This document shows, piece by piece, positions 4,115 to 53,002 of a stretch of DNA of 64,000 nucleotides; the stretch's first letter is position 1; each line of letters starts with the position of its first letter. The notes beneath the pieces were generated by a model that searched no databases, had not been told where the DNA came from, and saw only the letters and a list, made by a program, of their open reading frames with translations. This DNA is from a virus. The stretch lies in UHGV virus genome UHGV-0033546. One strand, written 5' to 3'. Position numbers and translations under genes: made by a program.

Positions 4115-4449
4115 TCACAAGATGTAGATGAACAACTAGAATCACAAGAACTTCCACACGAATCGCCCGTCCATACATGAACAGGAACATTAGTGTCATA
4201 TGAATCAGAACTAGACTGTGTATTCTGCGTATTAGATGATGTAGGTGTTGACCAGCGCCAAGGATTTTTATAATATTCTTGGGCTTCTTCATAAGTCATA
4301 GTAACTGCTTCTACTGTTCCATCTCCCATATAAACATATTCAACTACAGTTAAAGGAAGGTAGTCATTTGAAATAGGAACTACACCTTCTCCGGGAGTTG
4401 TAGAGAAAAAATCCGTAAAGAAACTTTTAAACCAATTAAAGATAAACAT
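4111..4449 (-). CDS. hypothetical protein, hydrophobic N-terminus and Ser/Cys-rich C-terminus
   Basis: 112 aa; C-terminal [15 protein letters not shown]. Confidence 0.5.
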
Positions 4450-4655
4450 TACAAAAAGCCTCTCTTGAATTCAACTTGCTTCTCGCCATAATCATGTCGA
4501 ATCTCTGCATTAAATTCGACAGAACCATCTGCATACATCATAAATGAATGCACAACAACTTCTGTAGACCATGGCTGTAGTTCATATTTTTTCATTACAT
4601 GCCGTGAAATGATAATATCTAAATCTTCATTTGGTTTAATCCAACGATTTAACAT
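4449..4655 (-). CDS. hypothetical protein
   Basis: 68-aa ORF(-) immediately downstream of early promoter. Confidence 0.5.
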   Translation of the reverse strand: MLNRWIKPNEDLDIIISRHVMKKYELQPWSTEVVVHSFMMYADGSVEFNAEIRHDYGEKQVEFKRGFL

Positions 4656-4681
4656 AGTGCTCTCCTCTATAAGATAATTCT

Positions 4682-4711
4682 ATTATACCATACTCATTTT
4701 GGAAAGTAAAC
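4682..4711 (-). promoter_or_regulatory. T4-type early promoter
   Basis: minus strand GTTTACT, 17-nt spacer, TGG-TATAAT. Confidence 0.6.
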
Positions 4712-4721
4712 CGGTAAAATG

Positions 4722-4747
4722 AAAAAAAGGACTCCCGAGGGAGTCCT
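4722..4747 (-). terminator. intrinsic terminator after soc
   Basis: GGACTCCC..GGGAGTCC hairpin followed by T7 run on minus strand. Confidence 0.6.
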
Positions 4748-4753
4748 TAAATT

Positions 4754-4990
4754 TTAACCACCTATTTCTGTAGGTGTAAACATTGCAGCATTTTTAGTTT
4801 TCCAAGTTGCTGCATCAGAAACTACGGTAGAATATGCTGCCTTTTCAGAAGGAAAGGTCTGATAATGAGAATCTGCAATACGGTGTTCATTTGAATATAC
4901 ATCAAATGCTACAGAAACTTCCATACCTTTAACTTCTTTGCCTTCACCTGCCGGATGAGTAAAGGTCTTGATGTTAACGAAACCACCCAT
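4754..4990 (-). CDS. soc: small outer capsid protein Soc
   Basis: 78 aa; VNIKTF...SHYQTFPSEKAAYSTV matches recalled T4 Soc; late promoter upstream. Confidence 0.8.
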   Translation of the reverse strand: MGGFVNIKTFTHPAGEGKEVKGMEVSVAFDVYSNEHRIADSHYQTFPSEKAAYSTVVSDAATWKTKNAAMFTPTEIGG

Positions 4991-5021
4991 AATAAACTCC
5001 TTTATTGTTTAATTACAGGTG

Positions 5022-5029
5022 TATTTATA
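5022..5029 (-). promoter_or_regulatory. late promoter TATAAATA (soc)
   Basis: exact TATAAATA on minus strand about 30 nt upstream of soc ATG. Confidence 0.6.
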
Positions 5030-5032
5030 TCA

Positions 5033-5551
5033 TTAATAACCTCTGTCTTGACGTGCGAAATTTTCTGCATTTTTCAGATAATAAAGTTTAAAGATTTCTT
5101 CAGCAGTAAGACCAAGACCTTGAAACATATTCAGAACGAAATGAAGAATATCAATCATTTCAAATTTAATTTCCAACTGGTCTTGCGGAGACAAATCAGT
5201 AATCAGAGTTTCACGGCGTTCACCATGTTGCGACTTCCAAGGTTTCCATACAGCAGATGCATCTTTTTCGCCATTGCTCATACCACCAAGAGAAGTCAGA
5301 AGTTCACGGAATTCATCATCAATATAGTCTTTCTGATTACGTAGCCAATCAACAACTTCACCGGCAGTAGCCAAATCATCAGGATGACGGTTATATTCAG
5401 GTTTATCTTTAGCTAAACGAACCTGTAAAGATTTCTGCATATCAAGCATAACCTGCAGCGGGTCTTTTTCATCACCGAGAATATCCCAGTATTCATTTTG
5501 AGCTTTATCAGCGCCTTCGATCAGTTGTGAACATTCGTTAAAGTATGCCAT
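5033..5551 (-). CDS. 56: dCTPase/dCTP pyrophosphatase gp56
   Basis: start re-assigned to internal ATG 5551 (MAYFNEC..., AAGGA SD); strong match to recalled T4 gp56. Confidence 0.85.
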   Translation of the reverse strand: MAYFNECSQLIEGADKAQNEYWDILGDEKDPLQVMLDMQKSLQVRLAKDKPEYNRHPDDLATAGEVVDWLRNQKDYIDDEFRELLTSLGGMSNGEKDASAVWKPWKSQHGERRETLITDLSPQDQLEIKFEMIDILHFVLNMFQGLGLTAEEIFKLYYLKNAENFARQDRGY

Positions 5552-5585: not shown

Positions 5586-5609
5586 ATTATACAATAAATA
5601 TATAAAGCA
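5586..5609 (-). promoter_or_regulatory. MotA-dependent middle promoter upstream of gene 56
   Basis: minus strand TGCTTTA (MotA box), 11 nt, TATAAT. Confidence 0.5.
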
Positions 5610-5622
5610 ATAAGGAGGACAT

Positions 5623-10019: not shown

Positions 10020-11193
10020 TAAATTCTTCCATATCACTTAACTGATCTAGGTCAGTTTCTAAATCAGCTGCTGATTTACTTTTACTTTCTGGAGATTTAA
10101 ATTTTTCAACCTTTGAGTTAATCAATTCATCAACTTCAGCTTCAACAATTTCATTACTATCAATAGCACCTAATTGATAAGCACGTTTAATAGCATCTCG
10201 GAATGGCTGATGCTTAAATAAAGGACCCCAGAATGTAGTGCAGTTGGTATCTTTTGCACGCCAAGATTTTTCTTCGCGAATCATCTCGCCGGTTTCTTCG
10301 TCAAGAAATTCACGAGCATACCAGCCATTTTTTGGTTTTACCACAAATCCTAATTCAAGAGCCATATCTAACAATCCAGAATAAGGATCGATACCACCGT
10401 CAAATTTAACATCAATAAAGAATTTACTTTTTTCTTTAACAGTACGAGATTTTTCTACATTTAGAACAAATTGATACCCCTGAAGATCAGAACCATCTTT
10501 AATCTGGCGCTTACCGATAATGAATACAGTATCAGCCGAATACATTACGCCTGTACCACCTGTCATCACGGTTTTACTAAACATTTCAATTGTTTCAATT
10601 GTATGGTTAACCGCAACACATGGAATATTTTTAATGCTAAAATAAGGAGTAACAATACGGAATAATGACTTCAGCGATTTAGCACGAGTCATATCTGCCA
10701 CAGATTTTTCATTCAAGGCATCTTCCGTTTCTTTCTTAGAAGCCATATTACCGATTGAGTCGATGAATACAATAACCTTTTCACCACGCTCAATAGCTTC
10801 AAGCTGATTCACCATATCAATTTTCAGCTGTTCAACTGACTGGATTGGCGTATGAATTACTCGTTCCGGGTCAACACCCATGGATCGCAAATAAGCTGGA
10901 GTAATACCAAATTCGCTATCATAAAATAGACAAACCGCGTCAGGATATTTGTTCAAATACGCCGCAACCATAGTCAAAGACATATTTGATTTAAAGTGTT
11001 TAGAAGGACCTGCAAAAATGGTTAAACCAGACTGCATACCACCATCAATCGCACCAGAAATAGCGATATTAAGCATTGGGATTTTTGTGCGAATTACATC
11101 CTTTTCATTAAAGAATTTAGATGTAGTCAGTTCAGCAGTCATTTTAGAAGTGGAAGCTTTAATCAAACGGGATTTTAAATCTGCAATAGACAT
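10012..11193 (-). CDS. uvsX: recombinase UvsX (RecA-like)
   Basis: 393 aa; Walker A GPSKHFKS; close match to recalled T4 UvsX. Confidence 0.9.
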   Translation of the reverse strand: MSIADLKSRLIKASTSKMTAELTTSKFFNEKDVIRTKIPMLNIAISGAIDGGMQSGLTIFAGPSKHFKSNMSLTMVAAYLNKYPDAVCLFYDSEFGITPAYLRSMGVDPERVIHTPIQSVEQLKIDMVNQLEAIERGEKVIVFIDSIGNMASKKETEDALNEKSVADMTRAKSLKSLFRIVTPYFSIKNIPCVAVNHTIETIEMFSKTVMTGGTGVMYSADTVFIIGKRQIKDGSDLQGYQFVLNVEKSRTVKEKSKFFIDVKFDGGIDPYSGLLDMALELGFVVKPKNGWYAREFLDEETGEMIREEKSWRAKDTNCTTFWGPLFKHQPFRDAIKRAYQLGAIDSNEIVEAEVDELINSKVEKFKSPESKSKSAADLETDLDQLSDMEEFNE

Positions 11194-11270
11194 TCATTTT
11201 TTCCATAGGCATCATTATATTTTCCTCACTGGTTAAAGATAGAGTAATTATAACACAATAAATTTAGGCA

Positions 11271-12119
11271 TTAATCAACTGCTATTGGATGAATAGCATT
11301 AAACTTATGAAATGCTTCTGATTTTTCTTTACGCGAAACACACATACGAAGAACCTTTAATGGCTCGTCTTCTTCACCCAACGATTTTCGTTTTTCAATA
11401 TTAGAAGTTTTCCAACGAGCTTGCTCTGGAAACTCTCTATTGATTTGCTCAAGAGCTCTATTATGTTTTGAATTACTACGAATTGAACTACACCCACCAG
11501 GAGCTTGTGCTTTTCCAGATACAACTAGATATTTGAACAAGGCCAAATGCGGATAACCTTGATTAATTAAATTGAGAAATGCATACATATCTTCGCATAA
11601 ATCAATTTTTCCATACCCAATTTGTTCTGTGGTAAGTTTTCCTAAATCATACCATGTATTTGTGAATCCATATGAATTTTCACGATAATTACCCCAAGAT
11701 GAAGTAATTTTAAAAATTGGTAGACGAGCATGGCCATGATAATACCCGCAATCCATGGCATCTTCAACGTATTGAATCAATTCATAGAACTGTTCACGAG
11801 TTAATTGATTAATTTTATCTACGCAGCGACGATCATCTTTCTTTCGCATTGAACTCATACGAATAGTAGTATCATCATCAATCATCCAAATTCGTTGACC
11901 TGCATACATATCAGTAATTGCTTTACGAGTACCAGCAATTCCGTTAACATCATCAGGAATAGTTATAATTTTAGCTCTAGACCCGTAAGCGTCATAATAA
12001 GCTTTTTCTTCATGTTTACGCACTACAATATGGGGTTCATAATCAGTCGGAAACATATCAAGGGCAGAAACTGCCCCGACACGCTGATAACTTGGAATTA
12101 CGAATTGAATCATTTCCAC
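11271..12119 (-). CDS. GT-A-type glycosyltransferase at the beta-gt locus (possible T2/T6-type beta-alpha glucosyltransferase)
   Basis: 282 aa; N-terminal FVIPSYQR and DxD (WMIDDD); not like 351-aa T4 beta-gt. Confidence 0.55.
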   Translation of the reverse strand: MEMIQFVIPSYQRVGAVSALDMFPTDYEPHIVVRKHEEKAYYDAYGSRAKIITIPDDVNGIAGTRKAITDMYAGQRIWMIDDDTTIRMSSMRKKDDRRCVDKINQLTREQFYELIQYVEDAMDCGYYHGHARLPIFKITSSWGNYRENSYGFTNTWYDLGKLTTEQIGYGKIDLCEDMYAFLNLINQGYPHLALFKYLVVSGKAQAPGGCSSIRSNSKHNRALEQINREFPEQARWKTSNIEKRKSLGEEDEPLKVLRMCVSRKEKSEAFHKFNAIHPIAVD

Positions 12120-12850
12120 TCACCATTATAATCTTTTTTCGCAATATGAGTTTCGCCAGTATTCCACCAATGGTCAACCAAATAAAACTGATTTTCGTAC
12201 ACATGAAGACTTCCGACATTCCATATAATAGAACCTGCTTTATACTGTCGTGATGGGTCGCCTGCATTCAAATCAGATACTAATTTATCTAGTACGTATT
12301 TTTGCCACGCATAATCATTACGATAGCCTGCCCAGCAGTCATTGCTTCTCATATTAACAACTGCATTGACTTTCTTATCACGAATCAGGTACTGTACTGT
12401 ATTAGTACACATGAAATCTGACATGCCGTCTTTGTTGTAGTCAAACTGCATAGATGGACGAGTATAAATCATGATACCACGCCGAGAATCAGGATTTTGA
12501 CCAAGTTCAGCTAAACACATATCATACTGGGCATAGTTATTTTCTGACCAGATAGCCCAACCATAATTCGAGTTAATTTCGCCTTTAGAAGATGCTACCT
12601 GCTGCCAAATCTTTGGTGTTTCACCTGGAATATCTTTAACAAACAAGCTCTTAGATTTATACCATTCAAGTTCACGCTGAATGTATTCATCATTAAGAGC
12701 GCCAAAAATAAACGGTTCATCTGCTACAAATGATGCGCCAATAATTTCAATAGTTTTAACACCAGTTTTATCAACTACGAAATCTTTTTCCTTTAATGCA
12801 AGCCCCAAATGAAGACGGATTTCTTCAACTGTCATAGAGTCACTAATCAT
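12110..12850 (-). CDS. 42: dCMP hydroxymethylase gp42
   Basis: 246 aa; thymidylate-synthase-like fold; near-identical to recalled T4 gp42. Confidence 0.9.
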   Translation of the reverse strand: MISDSMTVEEIRLHLGLALKEKDFVVDKTGVKTIEIIGASFVADEPFIFGALNDEYIQRELEWYKSKSLFVKDIPGETPKIWQQVASSKGEINSNYGWAIWSENNYAQYDMCLAELGQNPDSRRGIMIYTRPSMQFDYNKDGMSDFMCTNTVQYLIRDKKVNAVVNMRSNDCWAGYRNDYAWQKYVLDKLVSDLNAGDPSRQYKAGSIIWNVGSLHVYENQFYLVDHWWNTGETHIAKKDYNGEWK

Positions 12851-16599: not shown

Positions 16600-16968
16600 T
16601 TAATTACCAATCGTATATTTAGGAACGAGTTTCCATTCATGTTTTTGTTTAAAAGAAATAACTCGGAAGTTATTAGTTAGATCTTTCATAAAAGTTCTTT
16701 GACCTGGAGCGATTTCAATCAGTCCCCAATCTTCTAACAGCCACGCAATCGAATCACGGCGAACTTCATCTTCTTCTGTCATTTCAACCTGACGGCCATC
16801 CATACGAAGCATTTCTTTAAAATGAACGATATAGTATAGTCCTTTTTTCTGAAGAATATGACAGGACTGATACAAAACTTTATCTTTATTATTAGCAATT
16901 CCCATACGAGTCAAAGTTTCTTTTACTTTCAGAAAATCTTCAGGTTTTTTAAGAGTAATTTCAATCAT
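16600..16968 (-). CDS. regA: translational repressor RegA
   Basis: 122 aa, essentially identical to recalled T4 RegA. Confidence 0.9.
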   Translation of the reverse strand: MIEITLKKPEDFLKVKETLTRMGIANNKDKVLYQSCHILQKKGLYYIVHFKEMLRMDGRQVEMTEEDEVRRDSIAWLLEDWGLIEIAPGQRTFMKDLTNNFRVISFKQKHEWKLVPKYTIGN

Positions 16969-16969
16969 T

Positions 16970-17533
16970 TTACCATTCCAATGCTAGTTTTTTGAGTTGT
17001 TTCTGTTCTTTTACATTCTTAGTCACTTCTTTTAAAAAATCATCCGTGACTAAACCTTTTAGTTCTTTTAATACTAAAGGAAGTTTTCCATTTTTAGTAA
17101 GAATTGATTTATAGTTAATTGCATCATTTGTATTAACTTGATACCGTTTAGCAAGTAACTTAATAATCAATACTTCGGTAGAATCTTCAACCAGTTTTGC
17201 CCATTTACCATATCTTTTACCACGAGGAACTGCAGCCATCAGATAATTAAAATGAGCTTCATCACTTAATCCGGAACCGATTAAATTCATTGCATATACA
17301 GCTGGCATGCACTCCGGAAATTGTGATAATGCATTTTCAACCATGAATTTTGAATAATCTTTTTGAGCAATAGAGCATTTAGTTTTATTATTAATAGCTC
17401 CAATTATTTCAAAAAATTCATTTTCAGATTTTTCCTTAAAAGAATCAGCAGCAGATTGGACAGCTGTCCAATCTTTTGAATACCAAGCAACTTGATGCTT
17501 GTTTAATTGAATATCATCTTCAAATAAGCTCAT
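16970..17533 (-). CDS. 62: clamp-loader subunit gp62
   Basis: 187 aa from ATG 17533 ([11 protein letters not shown]...), TGA-t-ATG junction with gene 44. Confidence 0.85.
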
Positions 17534-17534
17534 A

Positions 17535-18509
17535 TCACTTCCACTGCATTTCACATGCTAATTGAATGAAAAGATATGCTAAATGTAATTCCGTATTAGC
17601 CGCAATTCCATGATACTGATTATTTTCACCAACAATTTCATACATACGAATAATACTTTGCGGAGTTACACGTGAATAAATTTCTTCGGCAAGTTTACCT
17701 ACGAACCACGAATAATCAGCTGCATATTTTGGTGCTAAAGCTCTGAGTTGTTTAACATCTTTATTTTTGAGAGACTCAAGAACATCATCAATAGCACCAC
17801 GATCGTTAGTAACCAATGATAAAATACCAGCATCCAAAACACCTTTAGATGAATAACTATCGAGCTCACCAATAGTTTTACGAAAATCAGGAAAATTCTT
17901 TTTAACCAAAGCTGCTACAACTTTCATATCAGCTATAGCAATTCCTTCATGCTTGCAGATTTCAGTCAATCGACGAATCATCTGCTTCATCATTTCAATT
18001 TTATCTTCATCAGTCGGTTGACCGAATGTAATAACTCGGCAGCGTGACTGAAGCGGTTTAATAATACCATCAATATTGTTAGCAGTAATAATAATACTAC
18101 AGTTTGAACTATAAGCTTCCATAAAGGAACGAAGATGTCGCTGAGACTCTGCTAACCCTGAACGGTCAAATTCATCAATAACGATTACTTTTTGACGACC
18201 ATCAAATGAAGCTGCACTAGCAAAATTAGTCAAAGGACCACGAACGAAATCAATTTTACAATCTGACCCATTCACAAACATCATATCAGCATTTACATCA
18301 TGACACAATGCTTTTGCTACAGTTGTTTTACCTGTTCCTGGAGAAGGAGAATGAAGAATAATATGTGGAATCTTACCTTTACTTGTAATAGATTTAAAGG
18401 TTTCTTTATCAAAGGCGGGAAGAATACATTCATCGATAGTAGATGGACGATATTTCTGTTCAAGAATGTGTTCTTTTTCATTTACAGTAATCATAATTTC
18501 CTCATTCAA
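17535..18509 (-). CDS. 44: clamp-loader ATPase gp44
   Basis: 324 aa; AAA+ Walker A SPGTGKTT, Walker B VIVIDEFD. Confidence 0.9.
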
Positions 18510-18545: not shown

Positions 18546-19232
18546 TTAAAAATCATGGGTAGAATCAGCTTCAAGAGCTACTACATAATTCGCGTGTTCA
18601 CCTTCAAATTTAGCAGCACCTTGTTTACCTTTTGCCCAGAGCAGAAGTTTATAATTTCCTGGTTGCATTTTCATATTTGCCATATTGATAATGAAATTAA
18701 ATGTATTTTCACCATCATAATCACCAAGATTCAAAGAATATTTAACACGGGTCAGAGCAGAATCTTCTACTTTATTAAAACCGTTAATTACGATTTTACC
18801 TTCTTTTACCGTGATAGCAATTGTATCAATTTGCAGACCACGAGATACACGCAACAGTTGTTGAAGGTCTTCAGCTTTAATTTCAGTAACAACAGATGCT
18901 ACCGGGAATGGAATTGGTTTATTAGGAGCAACTACTGTACTCGGATCGGCTGCTGGCCAAAAAATTGTTGAACGAGCATCAGCAATTTTAATATTTCCAT
19001 CTTCTGATTGGGAAATTTCTGCATCATCATTAACTAGGGACAGAATACCGAGAAAACCGTTCAAATCGTAAATTGCTACATCAAAATCAATAGTGTCAGA
19101 AATATTTGCTTCCGCATAAGTTGTACCATTAACTGCGCGAGTCATAATAAATTGACCAGATTTAAGCATAATACCGGAGTTAATAGTAGCGAAATTTTTC
19201 AAAATATTCAGTGTGTCTTTAGATAATTTCAT
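18546..19232 (-). CDS. 45: sliding clamp gp45
   Basis: 228 aa nearly identical to recalled T4 gp45. Confidence 0.95.
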   Translation of the reverse strand: MKLSKDTLNILKNFATINSGIMLKSGQFIMTRAVNGTTYAEANISDTIDFDVAIYDLNGFLGILSLVNDDAEISQSEDGNIKIADARSTIFWPAADPSTVVAPNKPIPFPVASVVTEIKAEDLQQLLRVSRGLQIDTIAITVKEGKIVINGFNKVEDSALTRVKYSLNLGDYDGENTFNFIINMANMKMQPGNYKLLLWAKGKQGAAKFEGEHANYVVALEADSTHDF

Positions 19233-20116
19233 TTCAATTTCCTATTTACATAATAGTTAGACCAGGACCGTACAGCACCCTGATAAGATTCGTCGTTAAA
19301 CCCATTAGCTACTGCAATTTTACGAAATTTATTATAACTCGGTTTTCCGTAAGCATGCCATAAAGATTTTAATTCATCTTCATGTTCAATCCAAGTTCCT
19401 CTAGCTTTAGATTTTCTAAATTTTGATTTGAATTCCGGTGAATTATTTCTAACAGTTGCTTGAATTGAAGCTCTCTGTCTTCTTTCAGCATTATTCCATA
19501 ACTCTTTTTGAGATTTAGAAATTTTTGATTTTACACTTTCTGAATTCATTATATCACTAAACTTTTTAGCATAACTGCAATCAAGATATTTCAATTTCAT
19601 CTTATTTGAAAGTTTAAGCTTTTTCTCATCGGTCCAGTGATTCTTCATTGAATTAGATATTTTGTATTTTACGTCAGAACTATGTTTGTAACCTTTACGA
19701 ATACCAACATAATCGGGCGTAATTTCAGATTGCGAAAGCTTTACAATTTTTCCAGTTAAAACATTTTTATATGTTCCATATCCTTTAGCGCCAATTAAAG
19801 TATTTTCATCTGCGTATGCTTTATTAAAATATTTTATATTACTTTTTGCTTTAACTTTTAATTGAAAAAATCTTTCCAATTTTCTTGGATCTAATATAGT
19901 TTCAGCTAAAATTTTGACGGTATATTTAGTGGTTTTAATAAGCTCAAAATATTCATCGCTATAACTCGATGACACGCTTCCAGTATAAATCTTTCCAGCT
20001 GAATCAATTATATTTGTTCCATCGAAAATTGCGTCAATTTTCGAACCTATATAATAACATGGAAAAATATTTTTAGCTTCCCGCTCTGGAAAGCTAATAA
20101 GATATACTAAATTCAT
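19229..20116 (-). CDS. putative GIY-YIG homing endonuclease with NUMOD-like repeats
   Basis: 295 aa; VYLISF...YYIGS; basic KxS repeats; between rpbA and 45. Confidence 0.55.
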
Positions 20117-20755: not shown

Positions 20756-22438
20756 TTAAACCATTACAGTAAATCGACCAACTTTCTTCATCTGAAGATG
20801 CTGACCATATTCTTGCGGGTCATGGTCTTTATGTGAAATTATAAAAACATTAGTGTTTTTCATTGAATTTATAATATTAGCTACACCTTTAATACCTTCA
20901 GCATCAAATGACCCGTCAAACACTTCATCGAGTATTAATGTACTAATACTAACACCAGATACAATAGAAGCAATATCACGCCAAGTAAATAAAAGAGCAA
21001 TATCAATTCGCGCTTTTTCACCTTCACTAAATGAAGCATAACTAAAATCTTCACGACCACGGGATTTAATTGTTTCATTAAATTCTTCATCTAATGTAAA
21101 CACATAATCCGCTTCCATTATTTTAAGATAATGGTTAATCTGCTTATTAAATAATGGAATGTACTTTTTAATAATAGCACCTTTAATACCAGAATCTTTG
21201 AGCATATCAGTCAAAATTCCTCTGTGGTATTTTTCCATTACTAAATTAGTTTTTGTTTTAACAATTTTATCAAGTTCTTCTTGAAGCAGTGCTATTTCAT
21301 CAGCATGGTCAATAAACTCGGATGATGCTTTTTCGATAGCCGCTTTAACTTTTTTAGCTTTATCTACTGTGGTGATTAAAGACTGCTTTTTATTGCGAAT
21401 ATCATTTGCCAACGTCTGTTGGGTTTTAATATTATCTCGGTATTCATCAACGAGAACTTTTAAATTATCACGATGTGTTGAAAGCTGTTCAAACGAATGT
21501 GTGCATTCAGAAACTTTATCTTTAATTTTAGAAACAACTTTATCACCGGAACTTAATTGTGACAAACAGGTTGGACATAATCCACCTTCGTGATACATAT
21601 TAATGACTTTATTATACGAGTCAATTTTTGATTTAATTAAAAATGCTTCTTGACCGATTTTATTAAATGCATCAGTCGGGTCTTCATCCAAAACAATATT
21701 AACTAATCTTTCATTAGCTTCTTCTATTTCCGATTTTAGTGTTCTAGCTTCTTTTGCCAAATCATCATACATATTCTGTAGACGAGTAAGATTATCACCA
21801 GTTAATTTTTTCTGGCGTTCAACATTATCGTTATATATTTTAATTTGTTGGATAATACTGTCTTTTTTAACATCAAGCACTTGGTTCTGCGAATTTAATT
21901 CACGTATTAGTGCTTTATTAAGCTTATCCATTTCAGCTAATGTTCCTACCTCAAGCAGGTCTTCCACAAGCTTTCTTCGCGCAGGGGTCGACAAACCCAT
22001 GAAAGGGGTATACCCTGCTGTACCAAGGACAACAATCTGCTTGAAACTGGCATATGACATTCCGATAAGCTGTTCAAATTCTGCTTGGAAATCTTTACTG
22101 CTGGCAGATTCATTAAGACGTGTACCGTTAACGGTGATTTCGAAAACGTTTGGTTTTTGTCCTCTTTTGATATAGTACTTTTTCTCATCATATTCCATCC
22201 ACAATTCAACTAAAAGTTCTTTCTTATTTGTGCTGTTTATTAATTGGCCTTTCTTTACATCACGAAATGGCTTGCCAAAAAGCCCAAATGTGATGGCTTC
22301 TAACATAGTAGACTTACCACCGCCATTTCGTCCAGTAATAAGAGTTTTTTGAACCTTATCTAATTGAATGTCAACTCCATTTTGACCAACTGACATTATA
22401 TTTTTATATTTTACTCTATTAAGTTTAAATGATTTCAT
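20756..22438 (-). CDS. 46: recombination endonuclease subunit gp46 (Rad50/SbcC-like)
   Basis: 560 aa; Walker A GRNGGGKST, coiled coil with CPTC zinc hook, signature/D-loop. Confidence 0.9.
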   Translation of the reverse strand: MKSFKLNRVKYKNIMSVGQNGVDIQLDKVQKTLITGRNGGGKSTMLEAITFGLFGKPFRDVKKGQLINSTNKKELLVELWMEYDEKKYYIKRGQKPNVFEITVNGTRLNESASSKDFQAEFEQLIGMSYASFKQIVVLGTAGYTPFMGLSTPARRKLVEDLLEVGTLAEMDKLNKALIRELNSQNQVLDVKKDSIIQQIKIYNDNVERQKKLTGDNLTRLQNMYDDLAKEARTLKSEIEEANERLVNIVLDEDPTDAFNKIGQEAFLIKSKIDSYNKVINMYHEGGLCPTCLSQLSSGDKVVSKIKDKVSECTHSFEQLSTHRDNLKVLVDEYRDNIKTQQTLANDIRNKKQSLITTVDKAKKVKAAIEKASSEFIDHADEIALLQEELDKIVKTKTNLVMEKYHRGILTDMLKDSGIKGAIIKKYIPLFNKQINHYLKIMEADYVFTLDEEFNETIKSRGREDFSYASFSEGEKARIDIALLFTWRDIASIVSGVSISTLILDEVFDGSFDAEGIKGVANIINSMKNTNVFIISHKDHDPQEYGQHLQMKKVGRFTVMV

Positions 22439-22453
22439 TTTGTATCCAATTGT

Positions 22454-23308
22454 TCACAATGAAGAAAATTCTTTAACTAAAGCCTGTAATGAAGCCTCTA
22501 TTGGATATCCATTCTTAACTAACATTTTCCTAAACATCACATGTTTAGGACGATTATATGATATCCACAATTCATACAATTTATCTTTATTATCCCAATG
22601 ATAGCCTTTTCGTCGAGATGCTATATGAGCTTTTCTAATCTCCGGATTTTTCCAACTAGCAGCTACTGAATTTAATATAGCTATTTTATATTCAGGTTTT
22701 GATAAAGCAGCACGAACAGCCTTTTGGTGTTTAATTTTATTTTCTTCGTTATTAAACCATTCCCTTGAAGCCATTGAAATTTTTTGTTTTGTTTTAAAAT
22801 TATTTAATCTTTCTTTGTTATCTTTCCTATTTTTTGCTACTGAAAAATATTTTAATGCCCTTTCTCTAGCAACATTTCTATTTTGTGGATTTGAATAATA
22901 CTGTTGAAGCCTTTTTGATATTGTGTCACTTACATCCTGTCTTATAAAACTATATTCAGCAGCTATTAAATCAACTTCGGCTAAAGATAAATTTTTATAT
23001 GTTTTTCCTGACATCATTCTATTTAAAGCATTTAGCATTTTTCCATTTTTACCTTTTGCTAATAAGAAATGTGCTTTGAAATGATTAAAATGACTTAAAT
23101 TAACTAAATTCCATGTAGATTTTAAATATTCAGGAAATATTGATTTAGGAAGCACGTGGTGTGCTTCCGTTTTACCTGGAGTTTTAACAGTTGAATTCAT
23201 AGAAATAAAATTAATATAAGACTTGGCGTCTTCTTCACTCAACGCTAATTTTTCAACTAATTCCTTTATTAAAAATTCATCATTAATATCAAGTTTAAAA
23301 TTCTTCAC
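22454..23308 (-). CDS. free-standing HNH homing endonuclease
   Basis: 284 aa; HNH core EAHHVLPKS...NLVNLSHFNHFKAH; NUMOD-like repeats. Confidence 0.7.
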   Translation of the reverse strand: MKNFKLDINDEFLIKELVEKLALSEEDAKSYINFISMNSTVKTPGKTEAHHVLPKSIFPEYLKSTWNLVNLSHFNHFKAHFLLAKGKNGKMLNALNRMMSGKTYKNLSLAEVDLIAAEYSFIRQDVSDTISKRLQQYYSNPQNRNVARERALKYFSVAKNRKDNKERLNNFKTKQKISMASREWFNNEENKIKHQKAVRAALSKPEYKIAILNSVAASWKNPEIRKAHIASRRKGYHWDNKDKLYELWISYNRPKHVMFRKMLVKNGYPIEASLQALVKEFSSL

Positions 23309-23520
23309 AAAAGATTCCTTTTAATGTATCTTTTAGACCATTCTATCATATCATCATAATCTAAAAAGTATTCATCAAATTCAGCCATGCAAACAACACC
23401 TTGTGCTGCTTTTGATGTGATATAAATTATTCCAACATATCTAGAATCTTCTTCGGTGTAATCAATATTTGCTATGAATTCATCATTAATGTCAAATGTC
23501 GAAAACTTCACAGTATGCAT
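23305..23520 (-). CDS. hypothetical protein
   Basis: 71 aa from ATG 23520 (AAGGA SD). Confidence 0.45.
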   Translation of the reverse strand: MHTVKFSTFDINDEFIANIDYTEEDSRYVGIIYITSKAAQGVVCMAEFDEYFLDYDDMIEWSKRYIKRNLL

Positions 23521-23755
23521 CCTTAATACAAGATATGGCTGTATCTTGTATTGATTTAGGTGTGTCATTATCTAAAATGTTGAAGTTAAAAGATACAGCC
23601 CAGTCAGTGCAGACCGTAACCTTTTTAATACAGTTATCTTCAACTTCTAGTGGTTCAAACCAGTATTCAATAATTTCTTTATGACCAATATCATCTTTTA
23701 CTTCGCATTCAAAATGCTGACTCATCATAACATTTTTAAATTCATCAAAAGTCAT
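23492..23755 (-). CDS. hypothetical protein
   Basis: 87-aa ORF(-) coupled to gene 47 stop. Confidence 0.45.
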   Translation of the reverse strand: MTFDEFKNVMMSQHFECEVKDDIGHKEIIEYWFEPLEVEDNCIKKVTVCTDWAVSFNFNILDNDTPKSIQDTAISCIKDAYCEVFDI

Positions 23756-24771
23756 TGTGTTGCCTCTACATATAACTGATTTGCATATTGAATAAGTGCT
23801 TCGCGATCAGAATCAGTGATGTCTGGAATTGCATTAATGTATTCTTCCATCAATGTCTGGAGAGATTGAACTTCAACTTCTTCACTATCATCTGACTCGA
23901 CAGAGTTATCAATCTTTGACACAACTCGTAACGAATGCACAACTTTTTCTAGTTCGGATTCGAACTTCGTTAGATTTTTGTCTACTTCAGTTACTATAAC
24001 ACGTACTGATAGATTTGTAAAATCTTTATAGTCAATTTTCCCCTTAAATGGATATTGAATTCGACGATGCCAGGTGGTGTTGTTTGGAATAAATTCCATT
24101 CGTTCTGTTTCTGTATCAAACATCCAGAACCCGCGAGGGTCATTCTCGTCACCTGCAGTTAGTGTCCATGGTGTCCCAATATATCTGACGTTAGCAGCCT
24201 CAGAGATAGTATGGAAGTGACCAGACCACACCTCTTTATAAGTCTTAAGGAAATCAGGTTCAAGACCGTGAGATTTCATTCCTTTATAAAAATAAAATCC
24301 ATTCAGTTCCCAGTGACCGACACAAAAAGAAGCAGATGAAGTTTTGATATGCTCAAGAATTTCACCAGTATTTTCTTCGCACATCCAGGGAATTAAATCA
24401 ATCAAACATCCGTCAAAATCTACTGTGGTAGGCTTATCATATACTTTAACATTAGGATATTTAGCCAAAAGCTCAGTAGAAGCATTTGGATGCATTACAT
24501 TTTTGTAGTGGAGATCGTGATTTCCTACAATAGTATGTAGGGTAATACCAGCATCATCAAGCATTTGAACTATTTCACGAGCGAACTCCATAGTTTTATG
24601 TGTGATTGCTTTTCGCACATCAAAAATATCGCCATATTGAATCCATGTAGTAATTCCATTTTTCTTAGAATATTCTATCGCTTGTTTAATTCCATCAATT
24701 TGAATACCGCGAATCCACTCATCATCAGCTTTAACACCTAAATGCCAATCACCTAAATTTAAAATTTTCAT
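23752..24771 (-). CDS. 47: recombination endonuclease subunit gp47 (Mre11/SbcD-like)
   Basis: 339 aa; calcineurin-like phosphoesterase motifs (GDWHLG, GNHDL). Confidence 0.9.
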   Translation of the reverse strand: MKILNLGDWHLGVKADDEWIRGIQIDGIKQAIEYSKKNGITTWIQYGDIFDVRKAITHKTMEFAREIVQMLDDAGITLHTIVGNHDLHYKNVMHPNASTELLAKYPNVKVYDKPTTVDFDGCLIDLIPWMCEENTGEILEHIKTSSASFCVGHWELNGFYFYKGMKSHGLEPDFLKTYKEVWSGHFHTISEAANVRYIGTPWTLTAGDENDPRGFWMFDTETERMEFIPNNTTWHRRIQYPFKGKIDYKDFTNLSVRVIVTEVDKNLTKFESELEKVVHSLRVVSKIDNSVESDDSEEVEVQSLQTLMEEYINAIPDITDSDREALIQYANQLYVEATQ

Positions 24772-24949: not shown

Positions 24950-26150
24950 ATTTTGTAATAATGTCAAACTGTTCTTTAAAGCAGAAGCTTGAATCTTGAT
25001 GCTGATACAAAAATTCATAAGCTTTTTCTCGCTCACGGTCATAAAGAGCTCGGTCAGATGACAGTTCTTTAATACGCTCGAATGTCGATTCCATGTCATT
25101 TTCGTCAAACCAAACGATACCGCTATCATGAGAAATTAACGGAGTATTATCAACACGGAATTTTAAATTTTCGCCAGTAGATTTCCAAAATACCGGAATT
25201 GTTCCACACGCTCCAAGCTCGAGATGAGTATATTCTAAAGAACGTTGTAGATATTTTTTGTCCAACTTACTCAACTGATAACCAAAACCGGATTTACTCA
25301 TGCGTTCAAGCATTTCGCTATTTACATAACGATCAAGAATTTGCGTTGGCAAATTAGGAGCAATTTTAATTTGGTCTACTTGATGAAGACGATAATACTC
25401 GTATGGAATTCCTTTTTCTTTAATAGGAATGAACGCTGGAGAACGTTCCAGACCTTCCATAATAGTACTTAGCCCAGCAGGTTTAAGATGTTTTTCGTGG
25501 AAATCAAACATCTGATAAAAACCTTTCCATGTAGTCGTACGACCAATCCAACGATTGACATTCATGTTAATTTTAGAAACATCTTTCCAGTAGGTTGATC
25601 GAACCTTCGCAATATCCATAGGAGGCTGAAAGTTGTATACAGTCGGTGCTTCTTCAATATCATCAAACAGAGAAACCGTTTCTGGATACCATTCTTTCAT
25701 CAAAACTTTATTAAAATCGCCATTATCAGAATGACTAAAAATAACATCAGCTCGACGAACAGTTTCTTCTAATCCCAAATTTCGACGCAAAGAAAGAGAA
25801 GAATGGTCATGTTGATAAACTACAACACGAACCGAAGGTTTAATGTTATCAATAATTTTTTTATAGTTATTAATAGTGTCTTCTTCGACTGAAGTAGCAG
25901 GAACTGAATTGATAATTAGAATATCACAATCATTTACCAGCTTAAGCGTTTTATCATATTCTTTTGCCAATAAAACCGGAATTGAAAATGATTTATAATC
26001 ATGTGCGCAATTACGAGTAAATGATTTATCTTTAGCATAAACCAAAGTTACTTCATGACCATTTTTAATAAACCAATCACGTTGCTCGAGAGAAAATTTA
26101 GTTACACCACAACCTTCAAGACCCCGAGCCATAAAAATACATACTTTCAT
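24948..26150 (-). CDS. a-gt: DNA alpha-glucosyltransferase
   Basis: 400 aa nearly identical to recalled T4 alpha-gt. Confidence 0.9.
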   Translation of the reverse strand: MKVCIFMARGLEGCGVTKFSLEQRDWFIKNGHEVTLVYAKDKSFTRNCAHDYKSFSIPVLLAKEYDKTLKLVNDCDILIINSVPATSVEEDTINNYKKIIDNIKPSVRVVVYQHDHSSLSLRRNLGLEETVRRADVIFSHSDNGDFNKVLMKEWYPETVSLFDDIEEAPTVYNFQPPMDIAKVRSTYWKDVSKINMNVNRWIGRTTTWKGFYQMFDFHEKHLKPAGLSTIMEGLERSPAFIPIKEKGIPYEYYRLHQVDQIKIAPNLPTQILDRYVNSEMLERMSKSGFGYQLSKLDKKYLQRSLEYTHLELGACGTIPVFWKSTGENLKFRVDNTPLISHDSGIVWFDENDMESTFERIKELSSDRALYDREREKAYEFLYQHQDSSFCFKEQFDIITK

Positions 26151-26200
26151 TTAATATCCTCATTGTTTTGGTTTATTTTACCAAAAATTTATAAAGCAAT

Positions 26201-30486: not shown

Positions 30487-30957
30487 TTAATCATGTTTCC
30501 ACACCCCATTGGTATTTGACCAAAGCCGCTGATTATCTGATCCTCGCCACAGCTTTTTGGTCGGAAGATTTTTCTCATACTTCCCATCAATAATAACATC
30601 AACATATTTAAGCATTTCTAGTTGTTTAATATCTTCAAACTTATATCCTGTCCACAACCAAATGCTTTTATTTGGATAAAGATTTTTGATAGTTTGAACC
30701 ACAGAGTGAATTACATCTCTATTATCAGGATAAAGAGGGTCACCTCCGGTTATAGTTAATCCTTCTATATAATCGTTATTCAAGCATTCAATTAATTGTT
30801 CCAGTGTTTCACCAGTGAATGGAATACCATTTCTAGCATTCCATGTTGATTTATTATAACACCCTTCGCATTTATGCAAACAACCTGTAACGAAAAGAAC
30901 GGTCCTGCACCCAGGACCATTAATAAAATCGCAAGGATAAATTCTATCGTAATTCAT
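30487..30957 (-). CDS. nrdG: anaerobic ribonucleotide reductase activating protein NrdG
   Basis: 156 aa; radical-SAM CLHKCEGC. Confidence 0.9.
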   Translation of the reverse strand: MNYDRIYPCDFINGPGCRTVLFVTGCLHKCEGCYNKSTWNARNGIPFTGETLEQLIECLNNDYIEGLTITGGDPLYPDNRDVIHSVVQTIKNLYPNKSIWLWTGYKFEDIKQLEMLKYVDVIIDGKYEKNLPTKKLWRGSDNQRLWSNTNGVWKHD

Positions 30958-32771
30958 TGATGCTTAACCCTATGCATGATTTCTTTATTTTTACCGAGAT
31001 TAAATCCGCGTTCGTTCGGGTTTCCCAAATATCCGCATGTTCTTCTTATGGTATTCATCTTTTTAGGATCAGTTTCTCCACAAATAGAACAAACAAATCC
31101 GGTTTCAGTAGGAGTCATTTCATGGGTACTTCCACATGTAAAACATTTATCTACTGGCATGTTAACACCAAAATAATCTAAATGTTGTGCAGCATAATCC
31201 CATACAGCCTCAAGACCTTTTAAGTTATTTTTCATATCAGGAAGTTCAACATAAGAAATGTGACCACCTGTTGCAATGAAATGATATGGTGCTTCACGAG
31301 AAATCTTTTCAAACGGGGTGATATTTTCTTCTACTGAAACGTGGAAACTGTTAGTGTACCAGCCTTTATCAGTAACATCCTTTACACTTCCATATTTTTC
31401 GGTATCAAGTTTACAGAAGCGATAACAAAGGTTTTCAGCGGGTGTAGAATACAAGCTAAAAGCAAAACCGGTTCTTTCAGTCCACTGCTTAAGATGAGCA
31501 TTCATTTTAGTTAAAATTTCCTGTCCAATATCACGACCAACAAGAATATTCAATTCATGAATACCAATGTATCCTAGAGACACTGAACTTCTGCCGTTTT
31601 TAAATAACTCAATTATATCGTCATCAGGTTTAAGACGAACCCCGAATGCACCTTCTTGATAAAGAATAGGAGCAACAGTCGCTTTAACTCCTTTTAAGGA
31701 ACTAATTCTACACATCAAAGCTTCAAAACACAAATCCATTCGCTCATTGAATAATTCAACAAATTTCTGTTCATTGAACTGTGTTCCAATATAAGAATCT
31801 AACGCAATGCGAGGAAGATTCAGTGTTACAACACCAAGATTATTACGTCCATCAAGAATTTCATTACCAGTCGAATCTTTCCATACGCTCAAGAAACTAC
31901 GGCAACCCATTGGAGAAACAGGAACAGATGAACCAGTGATAGCTTTATTGTTCTTAGCTGAAATAATATCAGGATACATCCTTTTGCTTGCACACTCTAG
32001 AGCAAGCAGTTTAATATCATAGTTCGGGTCGTCTTTATAAAGATTAACACCTTCTTCAACGAACATAACAAGCTTAGGGAAAATAGGAGTTATCCCATCA
32101 CGACCAAGACCTTTAATGCGATTTTTCAGAATTGCTTTCTGAATCATTCGTTCAGTCCAGTCAGTTCCCGTACCAAATGTAATTGTTACAAAAGGCGTTT
32201 GTCCGTTTGAACTAAAGAGAGTATTTACTTCATATTCATAAGCTTGGAATGCATCGTATACGTCTTTTTCTGTTTTAGATTGAGCATAATTTAACGCATC
32301 AGCGATTTGCCATTTTTCTGCATCCTCAATATGTTTTGCATAGGTGCGTTTAACATAAGGAGAAAGTACTTTATCTACATTCGCAAAAGTCGTTCCGCCA
32401 TATTGGTGAGAAGCAACCTGTGCAGTAATTTGTGCCATAATTGCAGTAGCAACGCCAATTGATTTAGGAGTTTCAATCTGTGCATTACCAAGCTTAAATC
32501 CGTTCTCAAGCATTCCTTTTAAATCTACTAAACAGCAATTAGTAAATGGAAGAGCAGGGGAATAATCAATATCGTGGAAATGAATAATTCCGCTTTCATG
32601 CGCTTTCATAATAAAAGACGGGACCATATTTTTGGCAATGTGTTTAGACACAATACCAGCCATAAGGTCCCGTTGAGTTGGAAAAACACGAGAATCTTTA
32701 TTAGCATTCTCGTTTAAAAGGTCTTTATTAGTTTTATGAATTAATCCTTCAATTTCTTTTTCAATTGTCAT
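30954..32771 (-). CDS. nrdD: anaerobic ribonucleoside-triphosphate reductase NrdD (intronless)
   Basis: 605 aa continuous; C-terminal glycyl radical RRTCGYLG; zinc ribbon CFTCGS...CSICGE. Confidence 0.95.
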   Translation of the reverse strand: MTIEKEIEGLIHKTNKDLLNENANKDSRVFPTQRDLMAGIVSKHIAKNMVPSFIMKAHESGIIHFHDIDYSPALPFTNCCLVDLKGMLENGFKLGNAQIETPKSIGVATAIMAQITAQVASHQYGGTTFANVDKVLSPYVKRTYAKHIEDAEKWQIADALNYAQSKTEKDVYDAFQAYEYEVNTLFSSNGQTPFVTITFGTGTDWTERMIQKAILKNRIKGLGRDGITPIFPKLVMFVEEGVNLYKDDPNYDIKLLALECASKRMYPDIISAKNNKAITGSSVPVSPMGCRSFLSVWKDSTGNEILDGRNNLGVVTLNLPRIALDSYIGTQFNEQKFVELFNERMDLCFEALMCRISSLKGVKATVAPILYQEGAFGVRLKPDDDIIELFKNGRSSVSLGYIGIHELNILVGRDIGQEILTKMNAHLKQWTERTGFAFSLYSTPAENLCYRFCKLDTEKYGSVKDVTDKGWYTNSFHVSVEENITPFEKISREAPYHFIATGGHISYVELPDMKNNLKGLEAVWDYAAQHLDYFGVNMPVDKCFTCGSTHEMTPTETGFVCSICGETDPKKMNTIRRTCGYLGNPNERGFNLGKNKEIMHRVKHQ

Positions 32772-43168: not shown

Positions 43169-43626
43169 TCAGCCTTATATTCAATAACAGGACATACTTT
43201 AGCTTTACGAGCTTTTAAAAATTCGACGATAATCGATTTCTTGGGTTGAATAGGAGGTAAACCTTTAGCCTTCCTATCAATATTTTCTACATGTAAAGCA
43301 TAATCCTTTTTCCATTTATAATCTTTATATTTTTCATGTAGTTGCGCAGGAATAACAAATGAACCTATAATAAGTAAAACAATCAAAAGAGCAAATATAA
43401 ATGCTGATGGAAGAAGAGTCCATAAACTACCAAAAATAAGCCAACGCTGTAGGCTTTCTGCACAAATAATTGTTAACCCTACGAGTATAGCACATCCAAA
43501 AATAGAAACGAAAAATGTAGGGATAACAATAGACCAAAAGTATGCACATAGTGTCTTAGGTCGTTTCCATTCGTCGTTAAACAGTTTGAATAATTTATAA
43601 TGCCAAGAGTTTTCATTAATAATCAT
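43165..43626 (-). CDS. hypothetical membrane protein
   Basis: 153 aa; three hydrophobic segments; coupled to downstream gene. Confidence 0.5.
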   Translation of the reverse strand: MIINENSWHYKLFKLFNDEWKRPKTLCAYFWSIVIPTFFVSIFGCAILVGLTIICAESLQRWLIFGSLWTLLPSAFIFALLIVLLIIGSFVIPAQLHEKYKDYKWKKDYALHVENIDRKAKGLPPIQPKKSIIVEFLKARKAKVCPVIEYKAE

Positions 43627-43628
43627 AA

Positions 43629-44150
43629 TTATCCTTTCATTGAAGGTGTAACAGTTGTTAAATACTTAATCATAGCTTCAGCTTCTGATTTTGATAATGA
43701 AATTTCTCCATTGTTTTGACGAATAGAAATAAAATCCGGATGACGGTCACCACCAGCTTTTAAAACACACATATAAGTATCAACTTCATCTTCAATATCT
43801 GAAATGATTGAAGCAGTTCCACACGAATGTGGTTTTTGATAAATCAATACAGCTTTTCTTCCACCGTTTGACTGTTCATAAACTTTTAACACATCAAACA
43901 AATCACTTCTTTTATCAATAGCTAAGATGTTGTTTTCATCTTCAATGTTAAATCCTTCGGATACTTCATAAAGTGTCACCCATAAATCGCCAATATCAAT
44001 AACAGCGTTCACTTTTCCATGACTTTCAAGAGCATGACAAATTTTCTTGATTTCGTCATAACTCATTTTAATAATATCATCTCCTTGAATAAGAAAGATG
44101 TCATTTTTAAATTCAACACGAATTAAACCACTTCCACTTGAAATAAACAT
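43629..44150 (-). CDS. hypothetical protein (paralog of 44157..44708)
   Basis: 173 aa; shared IGDLWV / YLTTVTPSM motifs. Confidence 0.5.
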   Translation of the reverse strand: MFISSGSGLIRVEFKNDIFLIQGDDIIKMSYDEIKKICHALESHGKVNAVIDIGDLWVTLYEVSEGFNIEDENNILAIDKRSDLFDVLKVYEQSNGGRKAVLIYQKPHSCGTASIISDIEDEVDTYMCVLKAGGDRHPDFISIRQNNGEISLSKSEAEAMIKYLTTVTPSMKG

Positions 44151-52977: not shown

Positions 52978-53002
52978 TTTATCCCTCCAAGTAACTGTGA
53001 AT

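Follow-up and report, generated by a model that had tools for sequence, protein, structure and literature searches.

A probable free-standing homing endonuclease gene of the Mob type at the start of gene 46 in a T-even phage genome

The 284-aa open reading frame (ORF) situated between genes 46.1 and 46 in a 64,000-nt stretch of virus DNA (UHGV-0033546, hereafter the window) is very likely a free-standing HNH homing endonuclease gene of the Mob type, with the architecture of T4 MobD, probably expressed without a promoter of its own and predicted to home at gene 46. The gene is an uncharacterised member of the T-even Mob family which is already annotated in RefSeq: copies 98-99% identical to that of the window are labelled ‘homing endonuclease’ in phages T6, CM8, and G28, and the gene of the T2 RefSeq record is labelled likewise. 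In the literature on endonucleases at the 46/46.1 locus, no paper was found that names or characterises the gene, its target or its mobility. The endonuclease thus adds an uncharacterised Mob-type member in the classic phages T2 (where it is defective) and T6 (where it is intact); it is an ordinary kind of element, and it leaves the overall view of homing endonucleases in T4-like phages unaltered.

The window corresponds to the early-gene region of a T-even phage (Tequatrovirus) and is collinear with T4 coordinates ~10.6-77 kb. The genes flanking the endonuclease share 97-98% DNA identity with the annotated T4 genes, the value for gene 46 being 97%. An earlier reading of the DNA, made from the letters only (the sequence-only reading), had described a 284-aa ORF with an HNH motif that interrupts the pair of recombination nuclease genes 47 and 46. 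The ORF was indeed recovered at exactly that place on the minus strand, with the quoted motif, and it sits in the cluster precisely between 46.1 and 46 (Table 1). It is free-standing, on the same strand as both neighbours and outside any intron or intein. Gene 46.1 has the same length as in the T4 and T6 annotations, and its stop codon overlaps the GTG start codon of the endonuclease (GTGA).

Table 1. Features of the endonuclease locus, with positions in the window.
Feature	Position	Strand	Basis
Homing endonuclease ORF, 284 aa, GTG start, TGA stop	22454..23308	-	ORF listing; PHROG 655; RefSeq copies
HNH (beta-beta-alpha-metal) nuclease core, residues 44-84, with E48, H50, H51, P54, N67, H76, H80	23057..23179	-	Alignment; AlphaFold (AF2); T4 MobB/C/D cores
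Helical repeat region, residues 128-234, NUMOD3-like / Seg-Mob-type, presumed DNA-binding linker	22607..22927	-	Regex scan; all-helical prediction
C-terminal module, residues 236-284 (HWDNKDKLYELWISYNRPK...GYPIEASLQALVKEF), presumed helix-turn-helix DNA-binding domain	22457..22603	-	Common to MobD, SegA, SegF
870-bp insertion relative to T4, boundaries ambiguous within the 9-bp repeat	22430..23299		Base-by-base T4 comparison; 12-phage junction alignment
Left copy of 9-bp direct repeat AAGTTTAAA, codons 4-6 (TTT AAA CTT) of present gene 46	22421..22429		T4 comparison; junction alignment
Right copy of 9-bp direct repeat, codons 4-6 of endonuclease ORF	23291..23299		T4 comparison; junction alignment
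Captured gene 46 translation start (putative)	23291..23319	-	Identity to T4 46.1/46 junction
Replacement gene 46 start on cassette (putative): 15-nt spacer (ACAATTGGATACAAA), then ATG AAA TCA	22430..22453	-	Sequence comparison
Gene 46 (Rad50/SbcC-like recombination nuclease subunit), downstream neighbour, presumed target gene	20756..22438	-	Pfam AAA_23 / SMC_N / Rad50 zinc hook
Gene 46.1 (DUF5487), upstream neighbour	23305..23511	-	Pfam DUF5487 E 2e-48
Genes 46.1 / 46.2 / 47, upstream of endonuclease ORF, same strand	23305-24771	-	Pfam; DNA identity to T4
Substitution patch linked to endonuclease gene, gene 46 codons 6-22, candidate target and self-immunity region	22373..22423	-	Two-genus codon alignments; database counts

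By sequence comparison, the 46.1/46 site of T4 is empty, as the sequence-only reading had expected. A 1901-bp query across the locus retrieved 563 phage records, 72 of which contain the whole segment; the locus spans 1901 bp with the insert and 1031 bp without it, the flanks then being joined directly. Carriers of the insert include T2, T6, SHFML-26, CM8, and G28, and empty sites were found in T4, RB14, and RB32. The junctions are identical in all six carrier genomes examined. The proposed mobile insertion is thus seen as an 870-bp presence/absence polymorphism, and the synteny comparison places the gene outside the core set of this phage group. Identity between carrier genomes peaks at and beside the insert (0.985-0.997) and is ~0.96-0.97 a few hundred bp off, a pattern which, in this small sample, is consistent with recent spread and co-conversion. 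The T6 copy is intact, the T2 copy has suffered a 2-bp deletion whose frameshift cuts the protein short after residue ~203, and RB68 has a truncated copy; such independent decay in T2 and RB68 fits the life cycle of a selfish gene.

The junctions also indicate how the gene may be translated. In T4 the stop codon of 46.1 overlaps the start codon of gene 46 (...AAGGAATCTTTT GTG A...), which then reads GTG AAG AAT TTT AAA CTT AAT AGA. The endonuclease of the window starts with GTG AAG AAT TTT AAA CTT and continues with GAT ATT AAT..., its first six codons being those of T4 gene 46. The Shine-Dalgarno sequence AGGA (23316-23319) precedes the GTG (23306-23308), and codons 2-6 (AAG AAT TTT AAA CTT) are identical to those of T4 gene 46. 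Gene 46 of the window now starts with ATG AAA TCA TTT AAA CTT, a replacement that changes gp46 only from MKNFKL to MKSFKL, and the new ribosome-binding site (GGA) is weak. As judged from these alignments, the endonuclease uses the original GTG and ribosome-binding site of gene 46, which receives a new ATG from the cassette. The new start (GGATACAAA ATG AAA TCA TTT AAA) is similar to the one native to gene 46 in the Mosigvirus phage RB69 (GAATACAT ATG AAA TCA TTT AAA), a likeness which suggests that the cassette arrived with a piece of a foreign gene 46 start. The earlier placing of the insertion between genes therefore needs amendment: its position between 46.1 and 46 stands, but it is not strictly intergenic, because the point of entry lies within the first six codons of gene 46.

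Transcription of the cassette would also depend on its neighbours. The late-promoter consensus (TATAAATA) has no match within 17 kb, and sigma-70-like matches, many of which occur across the region, are no commoner there than in shuffled sequence; the cassette is thus probably promoterless, and the endonuclease gene is most likely a promoterless passenger of the 47-46 transcript. Endonuclease genes without promoters that are transcribed from upstream include mobE and several other genes of T4 (PMC2988022, PMC2790892). The captured start would illustrate how a selfish gene that lacks a promoter can settle harmlessly in an operon, by taking the start signals of the resident gene and bringing a replacement.

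A hairpin was noticed within the ORF at 23148-23168. It has a near-perfect 9-bp stem (GGAAGCACG/TGG/TGTGCTTCC), lies exactly over the codons for E-A-H-H-V-L-P, and has a local RNA fold z of -2.9. A T-run follows it on the plus (antisense) strand, where the hairpin could terminate antisense transcripts. Its candidacy as an internal terminator like that of MobE was rejected, as no U-tract follows it in the sense direction and the Mosigvirus orthologue has not conserved it.

That orthologue, from phages AV112 and phiEC1, is the nearest non-identical relative of the window's protein, the two being 45% identical along their full length. Within Mosigvirus (the RB69 group) it sits at the same locus as in the window, immediately upstream of gene 46, between 46.2 and 46 and replacing 46.1. 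It occurs in 10 of ~155 records, with junctions identical within the genus; RB69 and most others have 46.1 instead. Whereas the window's ORF is fused to the first six codons of gene 46, the Mosigvirus ORF opens with the seven initial codons of RB69 gene 46.1 (MTKTDYE), and its 3' end overlaps the start of gene 46. On the alignments, it appears to be a second case of an endonuclease ORF fused to the start of a resident gene.

Both orthologues are accompanied by an altered stretch at the start of gene 46 (codons 6-22 in the window; the same linked patch lies at codons 12-21 in AV112 and phiEC1). Between the patch and the corresponding naive (RB14-type) sequence there are ~14 differences in 51 nt, against a divergence of ~3% in the adjoining DNA. 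The naive form encodes NRVRYQNIMSVGGNPID, a protein sequence that is identical across both genera, and was found in RB14, RB32, fPS-90, and NBG2 of Tequatrovirus and in RB69, JS09, and phage 55 of Mosigvirus. The patch form encodes ...Y-K-NIMSVG-Q-N-(G/F)... All eight sampled carriers (the window, T2, T6, LYE-01, CM8, G28, AV112, and phiEC1) possess the patch, as do three of the ten non-carriers sampled across the two genera (T4, ACG-C40, and WFL6982), an association that is purely comparative and drawn from phylogenetically non-independent sequences. Database counts gave ~365-372 naive, ~60-74 patch-only, and 72-82 carrier records, with at most two carriers that could be naive-like. The patch probably marks the target and self-immunity site of the endonuclease, and by analogy with MobE the enzyme would recognise the naive sequence within about the first 70 nt of gene 46. 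Since the patch also occurs without the gene in T4, ACG-C40, and WFL6982, it could instead belong to an older haplotype in which the gene landed by chance. Genomes of the T4 type may accordingly represent either the pre-insertion haplotype or former carriers from which the gene was lost across the 9-bp repeat.

The last possibility has a more general form, in which the gene is ancestral and has been deleted repeatedly by recombination between the 9-bp repeats rather than spread by insertion. The direct repeat is perfect and deletion across it regenerates the exact T4 sequence, and the T4-type empty sites share the gene 46 patch with the carriers; a history of this kind is nonetheless very unlikely, as the gene is found in only ~13% of Tequatrovirus and ~6% of Mosigvirus records and its junctions differ by genus, with fusion to gene 46 codons in one and to 46.1 codons, 46.1 itself being replaced, in the other. 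Furthermore, an insertion bringing in foreign sequence has its signature in the gene 46 start, which is duplicated and altered, and the majority naive haplotype, with the same protein sequence in both genera, is what would be expected of the ancestral state. Spread by insertion is thus preferred, and some losses, such as in T4 and WFL6982, are plausible within it.

The protein encoded by the insert has the residues of an HNH nuclease, arranged as E48-A-H50-H51-V-L-P54-K-S ... W66-N67-L-V-N-L-S-H-F-N-H76-F-K-A-H80. In an alignment of 79 family members, five residues (H50, H51, P54, H76, and H80) never vary, and conservation reaches at least 90% at E48, K55, and N67. The spacing of the core, HH-16-N-9-H-4-H, is that of the classical H-N-H motif; the same 16/9/4 spacing occurs in colicin E9 (H102, H103 / N118 / H127 / H131). 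AlphaFold (AF2) predicts strands at residues 47-51 and 68-72 and a helix at 73-84, with pLDDT >90 over the motif, and hence a putative beta-beta-alpha fold around it. The family profile aligned weakly with the McrA core (0.78), with the residues placed alike.

In the phage-specific library, the endonuclease matched PHROG 655 (‘homing endonuclease’, E 1.2e-44) and PHROG 12434 (‘HNH endonuclease’, E 4.8e-15), and an exhaustive phmmer search found 998 cluster representatives at E<=1e-3. Scans of the protein itself found no HNH or NUMOD model in Pfam and nothing in NCBIfam at E<0.1, and a PDB sequence search gave no match at E up to 10. Among the 79 homologues, 12 match the Pfam HNH model (PF01844) and 40 match NUMOD3. 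The Pfam families putAbiC and DUF6526, whose matches to the protein fell below threshold, were dismissed as chance. The HNH assignment made in the sequence-only reading is supported by the conserved motif, the predicted fold, and the PHROG match, and the catalytic His and Asn residues are in place. With its metal-binding and catalytic residues all intact, the protein would be expected to act as a nuclease. Comparison of five intact copies revealed 10 synonymous and 6 non-synonymous changes (dN/dS ~0.14), and therefore purifying selection on the endonuclease protein.

Beyond the nuclease core, a regex scan of residues 128-234 identified three to five repeats of the form S-x6-[WY]-x-N-P-E-x-R, and the family profile gave a weak match (E 0.017) to the I-TevI DNA-binding domain 1i3j. 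The NUMOD-like repeats of the earlier reading were thus partly upheld: degenerate repeats of a related form are present and 40 of the 79 relatives match NUMOD3, but the protein itself reaches no NUMOD model at the threshold used, and on this evidence it resembles the NUMOD family rather than belonging to it by direct Pfam membership. Some family members also match the Pfam models I-HmuI_NUMOD-like and I-TevI_DNA-bd. The joining of a nuclease to NUMOD-type DNA-binding modules recalls I-HmuI, the HNH nicking enzyme encoded in an intron of SPO1, and the DNA-binding domain of I-TevI. I-HmuI is intron-encoded, while the gene of the window is free-standing, and PDB searches gave no significant sequence or fold match between the I-HmuI and I-TevI structures and the window's endonuclease.

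Among T4 proteins, MobD is the closest. A BLASTP search of the translated T4 record gave 30% identity with MobD over 243 residues (E 4e-17), in an alignment that runs from the nuclease core through the helical [WY]xNPExR repeats to the C-terminal ‘LYELWISYNRPK...GYP’ module. The two proteins share the same domain order, consisting of an N-terminal HH..N..H..H core, helical repeats, and a C-terminal ‘LY.LW....RPK....GYP’ segment. The C-terminal module is also found in T4 SegA and SegF and in a 295-aa ORF of the window. MobB (E 2e-7) and MobC (E 1e-6) were matched over the HNH core, and tblastn searches with the endonuclease found annotated mobC and mobD genes. The attribution to the mob type therefore agrees with these results, particularly with the full-length resemblance to MobD. 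MobD is encoded at another locus (nrdC.11/mobD.1), and the window lacks mobD at the T4 position. In addition, the core loop of the window's endonuclease, HHVLPKSIFPEY..WN (HHVLPKSIFPE...WN), differs from that of the T4 Mob proteins (HHIIP..MGG.DD..N), and the endonuclease is therefore assigned to a distinct subgroup. In the table of a 2010 review, the activity of T4 MobA-D is entered as not determined, with MobE as the only T4 Mob entered as active; for MobD this applies to both activity and target (PMC2988022).

The scarcity of demonstrated activity among T4 Mob proteins (PMC2988022) is compatible with the window's gene being a relic, that is, a homing endonuclease descendant which no longer cuts and is kept as its deletion would harm the start of the essential gene 46. 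The frameshifted T2 copy, the truncated RB68 copy, and the escape of the protein from Pfam HNH models would be explained in this way, and imprecise loss would be harmful because the cassette now gives gene 46 its start codon. The 9-bp repeat would permit precise loss, however, so that retention is not enforced. The intact metal-binding and catalytic residues and the low dN/dS, which argues for selection on the protein, also weigh against a relic, as do copies that remain 98-99% identical across phages with more diverged flanks, with carrier identity peaking at the insert. A gene that has stopped cutting is therefore an unlikely explanation.

An active homing endonuclease gene could operate as follows. 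The cassette would be read from the early/middle 47-46.2-46.1-46 transcript, and the enzyme would be translated from the T4-type ribosome-binding site and GTG of gene 46, coupled to 46.1 by the GTGA overlap, with the 3' end of the cassette giving gene 46 its new spacer and ATG. In a mixed infection, the enzyme might nick or cut a co-infecting genome that lacks the gene; the most likely site is the naive sequence ...TAT CAA AAY ATM ATG TCR GTA GGT GGR AAT CCT ATT..., inside the opening ~70 nt of gene 46. Recombinational repair from the carrier genome would then transfer the gene, along with a short tract of flanking DNA. The carrier would itself escape cutting because its own codons 6-22 are patched and its original 46.1/46 junction is split.

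The nearest functional model is T4 MobE, at the nrdA/nrdB locus, which is likewise a promoterless cassette with a target in the 5' part of a conserved downstream gene. MobE nicks the 5' region of the neighbouring nrdB, where polymorphisms are thought to spare its own genome, and co-conversion of flanks occurs (PMC2790892). This likeness is one of function and not of sequence comparison, and MobE differs in having an internal intrinsic terminator, the hairpin of the window's ORF being without a sense U-tract.

Cutting of a rival allele could also benefit the phage rather than the endonuclease gene alone, if the enzyme served as a weapon of competition or exclusion or as a trigger of recombination, cutting the gene 46 region of rivals and so excluding markers or stimulating recombination or amplification. 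Precedents for homing endonucleases in phage competition and in anti-defence gene amplification appear in two reports (PMC11620839, PMC13096335), and the presumed target is an essential recombination gene. Nothing in the sequence separates such a role from ordinary homing, the mechanism is the same, and the proposal differs in selective benefit and not in molecular explanation; as a separate account it is extremely improbable. Ordinary homing by a Mob-type endonuclease is retained as the preferred reading.

A broader proposal, which we put forward tentatively and regard as possible rather than likely, is that a single lineage of endonucleases has tracked the 5' end of gene 46 through the two genera, each time borrowing a resident gene's translation start by fusion to its first 6-7 codons and carrying the codon 6-22 immunity patch. 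Patch-only phages such as T4 and WFL6982 would then be former carriers in which deletion across the 9-bp repeat removed the gene. If this is true, T4 itself would be resistant to a T6-type enzyme, and the local divergence hot spot at the start of an essential recombination gene would be explained. Together with a specific target prediction, the comparison provides three natural alleles (naive, patch-only, and carrier), which are available in two genera.

The window also contains a second free-standing endonuclease-like ORF, the 295-aa ORF mentioned above, at 19229-20116 on the minus strand between gene 45 and rpbA. It represents an 876-bp insertion relative to T4 and is present in 25 of 521 related records. 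Its N-terminus is GIY-YIG-like (VYLISF...CYYIGS), and its C-terminal two-thirds are homologous to the HNH endonuclease (27% identity over 221 aa, E 2e-11), suggesting that a DNA-binding module has been shuffled between nuclease types.

Relative to T4, the window lacks segF, segA with beta-gt, mobB, mobC, the nrdD intron with I-TevII, and mobD; the corresponding sites are at 4935-5033, 11181-12128, 26141-26166, 30937-30957, 32233-32236, and 43169-44132, and the mobD position is occupied by two unrelated ORFs of 153 and 173 aa. The phage's own set of endonucleases fits the known variable endonuclease content among T-even phages. The dam methyltransferase gene of T4 (T4 16825-17725) also appears to be absent, with ~21 bp between T4-matching flanks (window 5591-5612), and the adjacent gene 56 is unusually diverged (78% identity). 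The internal-protein genes ipII and ipIII (T4 65359-66454) have no counterpart in the window, at 52981-52988. Within the phage collection, no record exceeds ~97% identity to the window over an 18-kb stretch, the best being EC121 and vB_Eco-B1.1, so that the window derives from a Tequatrovirus outside the collection or is a mosaic of known ones.

Further endonuclease genes were observed near gene 46 in other phages. Downstream of gene 46, the loci of RB32 (1-358) and G28 (1-358) contain a gene resembling mobB on the opposite strand. In LYE-01, G28 (4350-4901), fPS-90, and NBG2, the place of 47.1 is taken by an ORF that overlaps gene 47 at its 5' end, extending from about 4350/3480 to the locus end in loci L006, L011, and L012; it is annotated as ‘HNH endonuclease’ in G28 and NBG2 and as ‘hypothetical protein’ in LYE-01 and fPS-90. 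Endonuclease insertions appear to have a hot spot in the 45-47 region.
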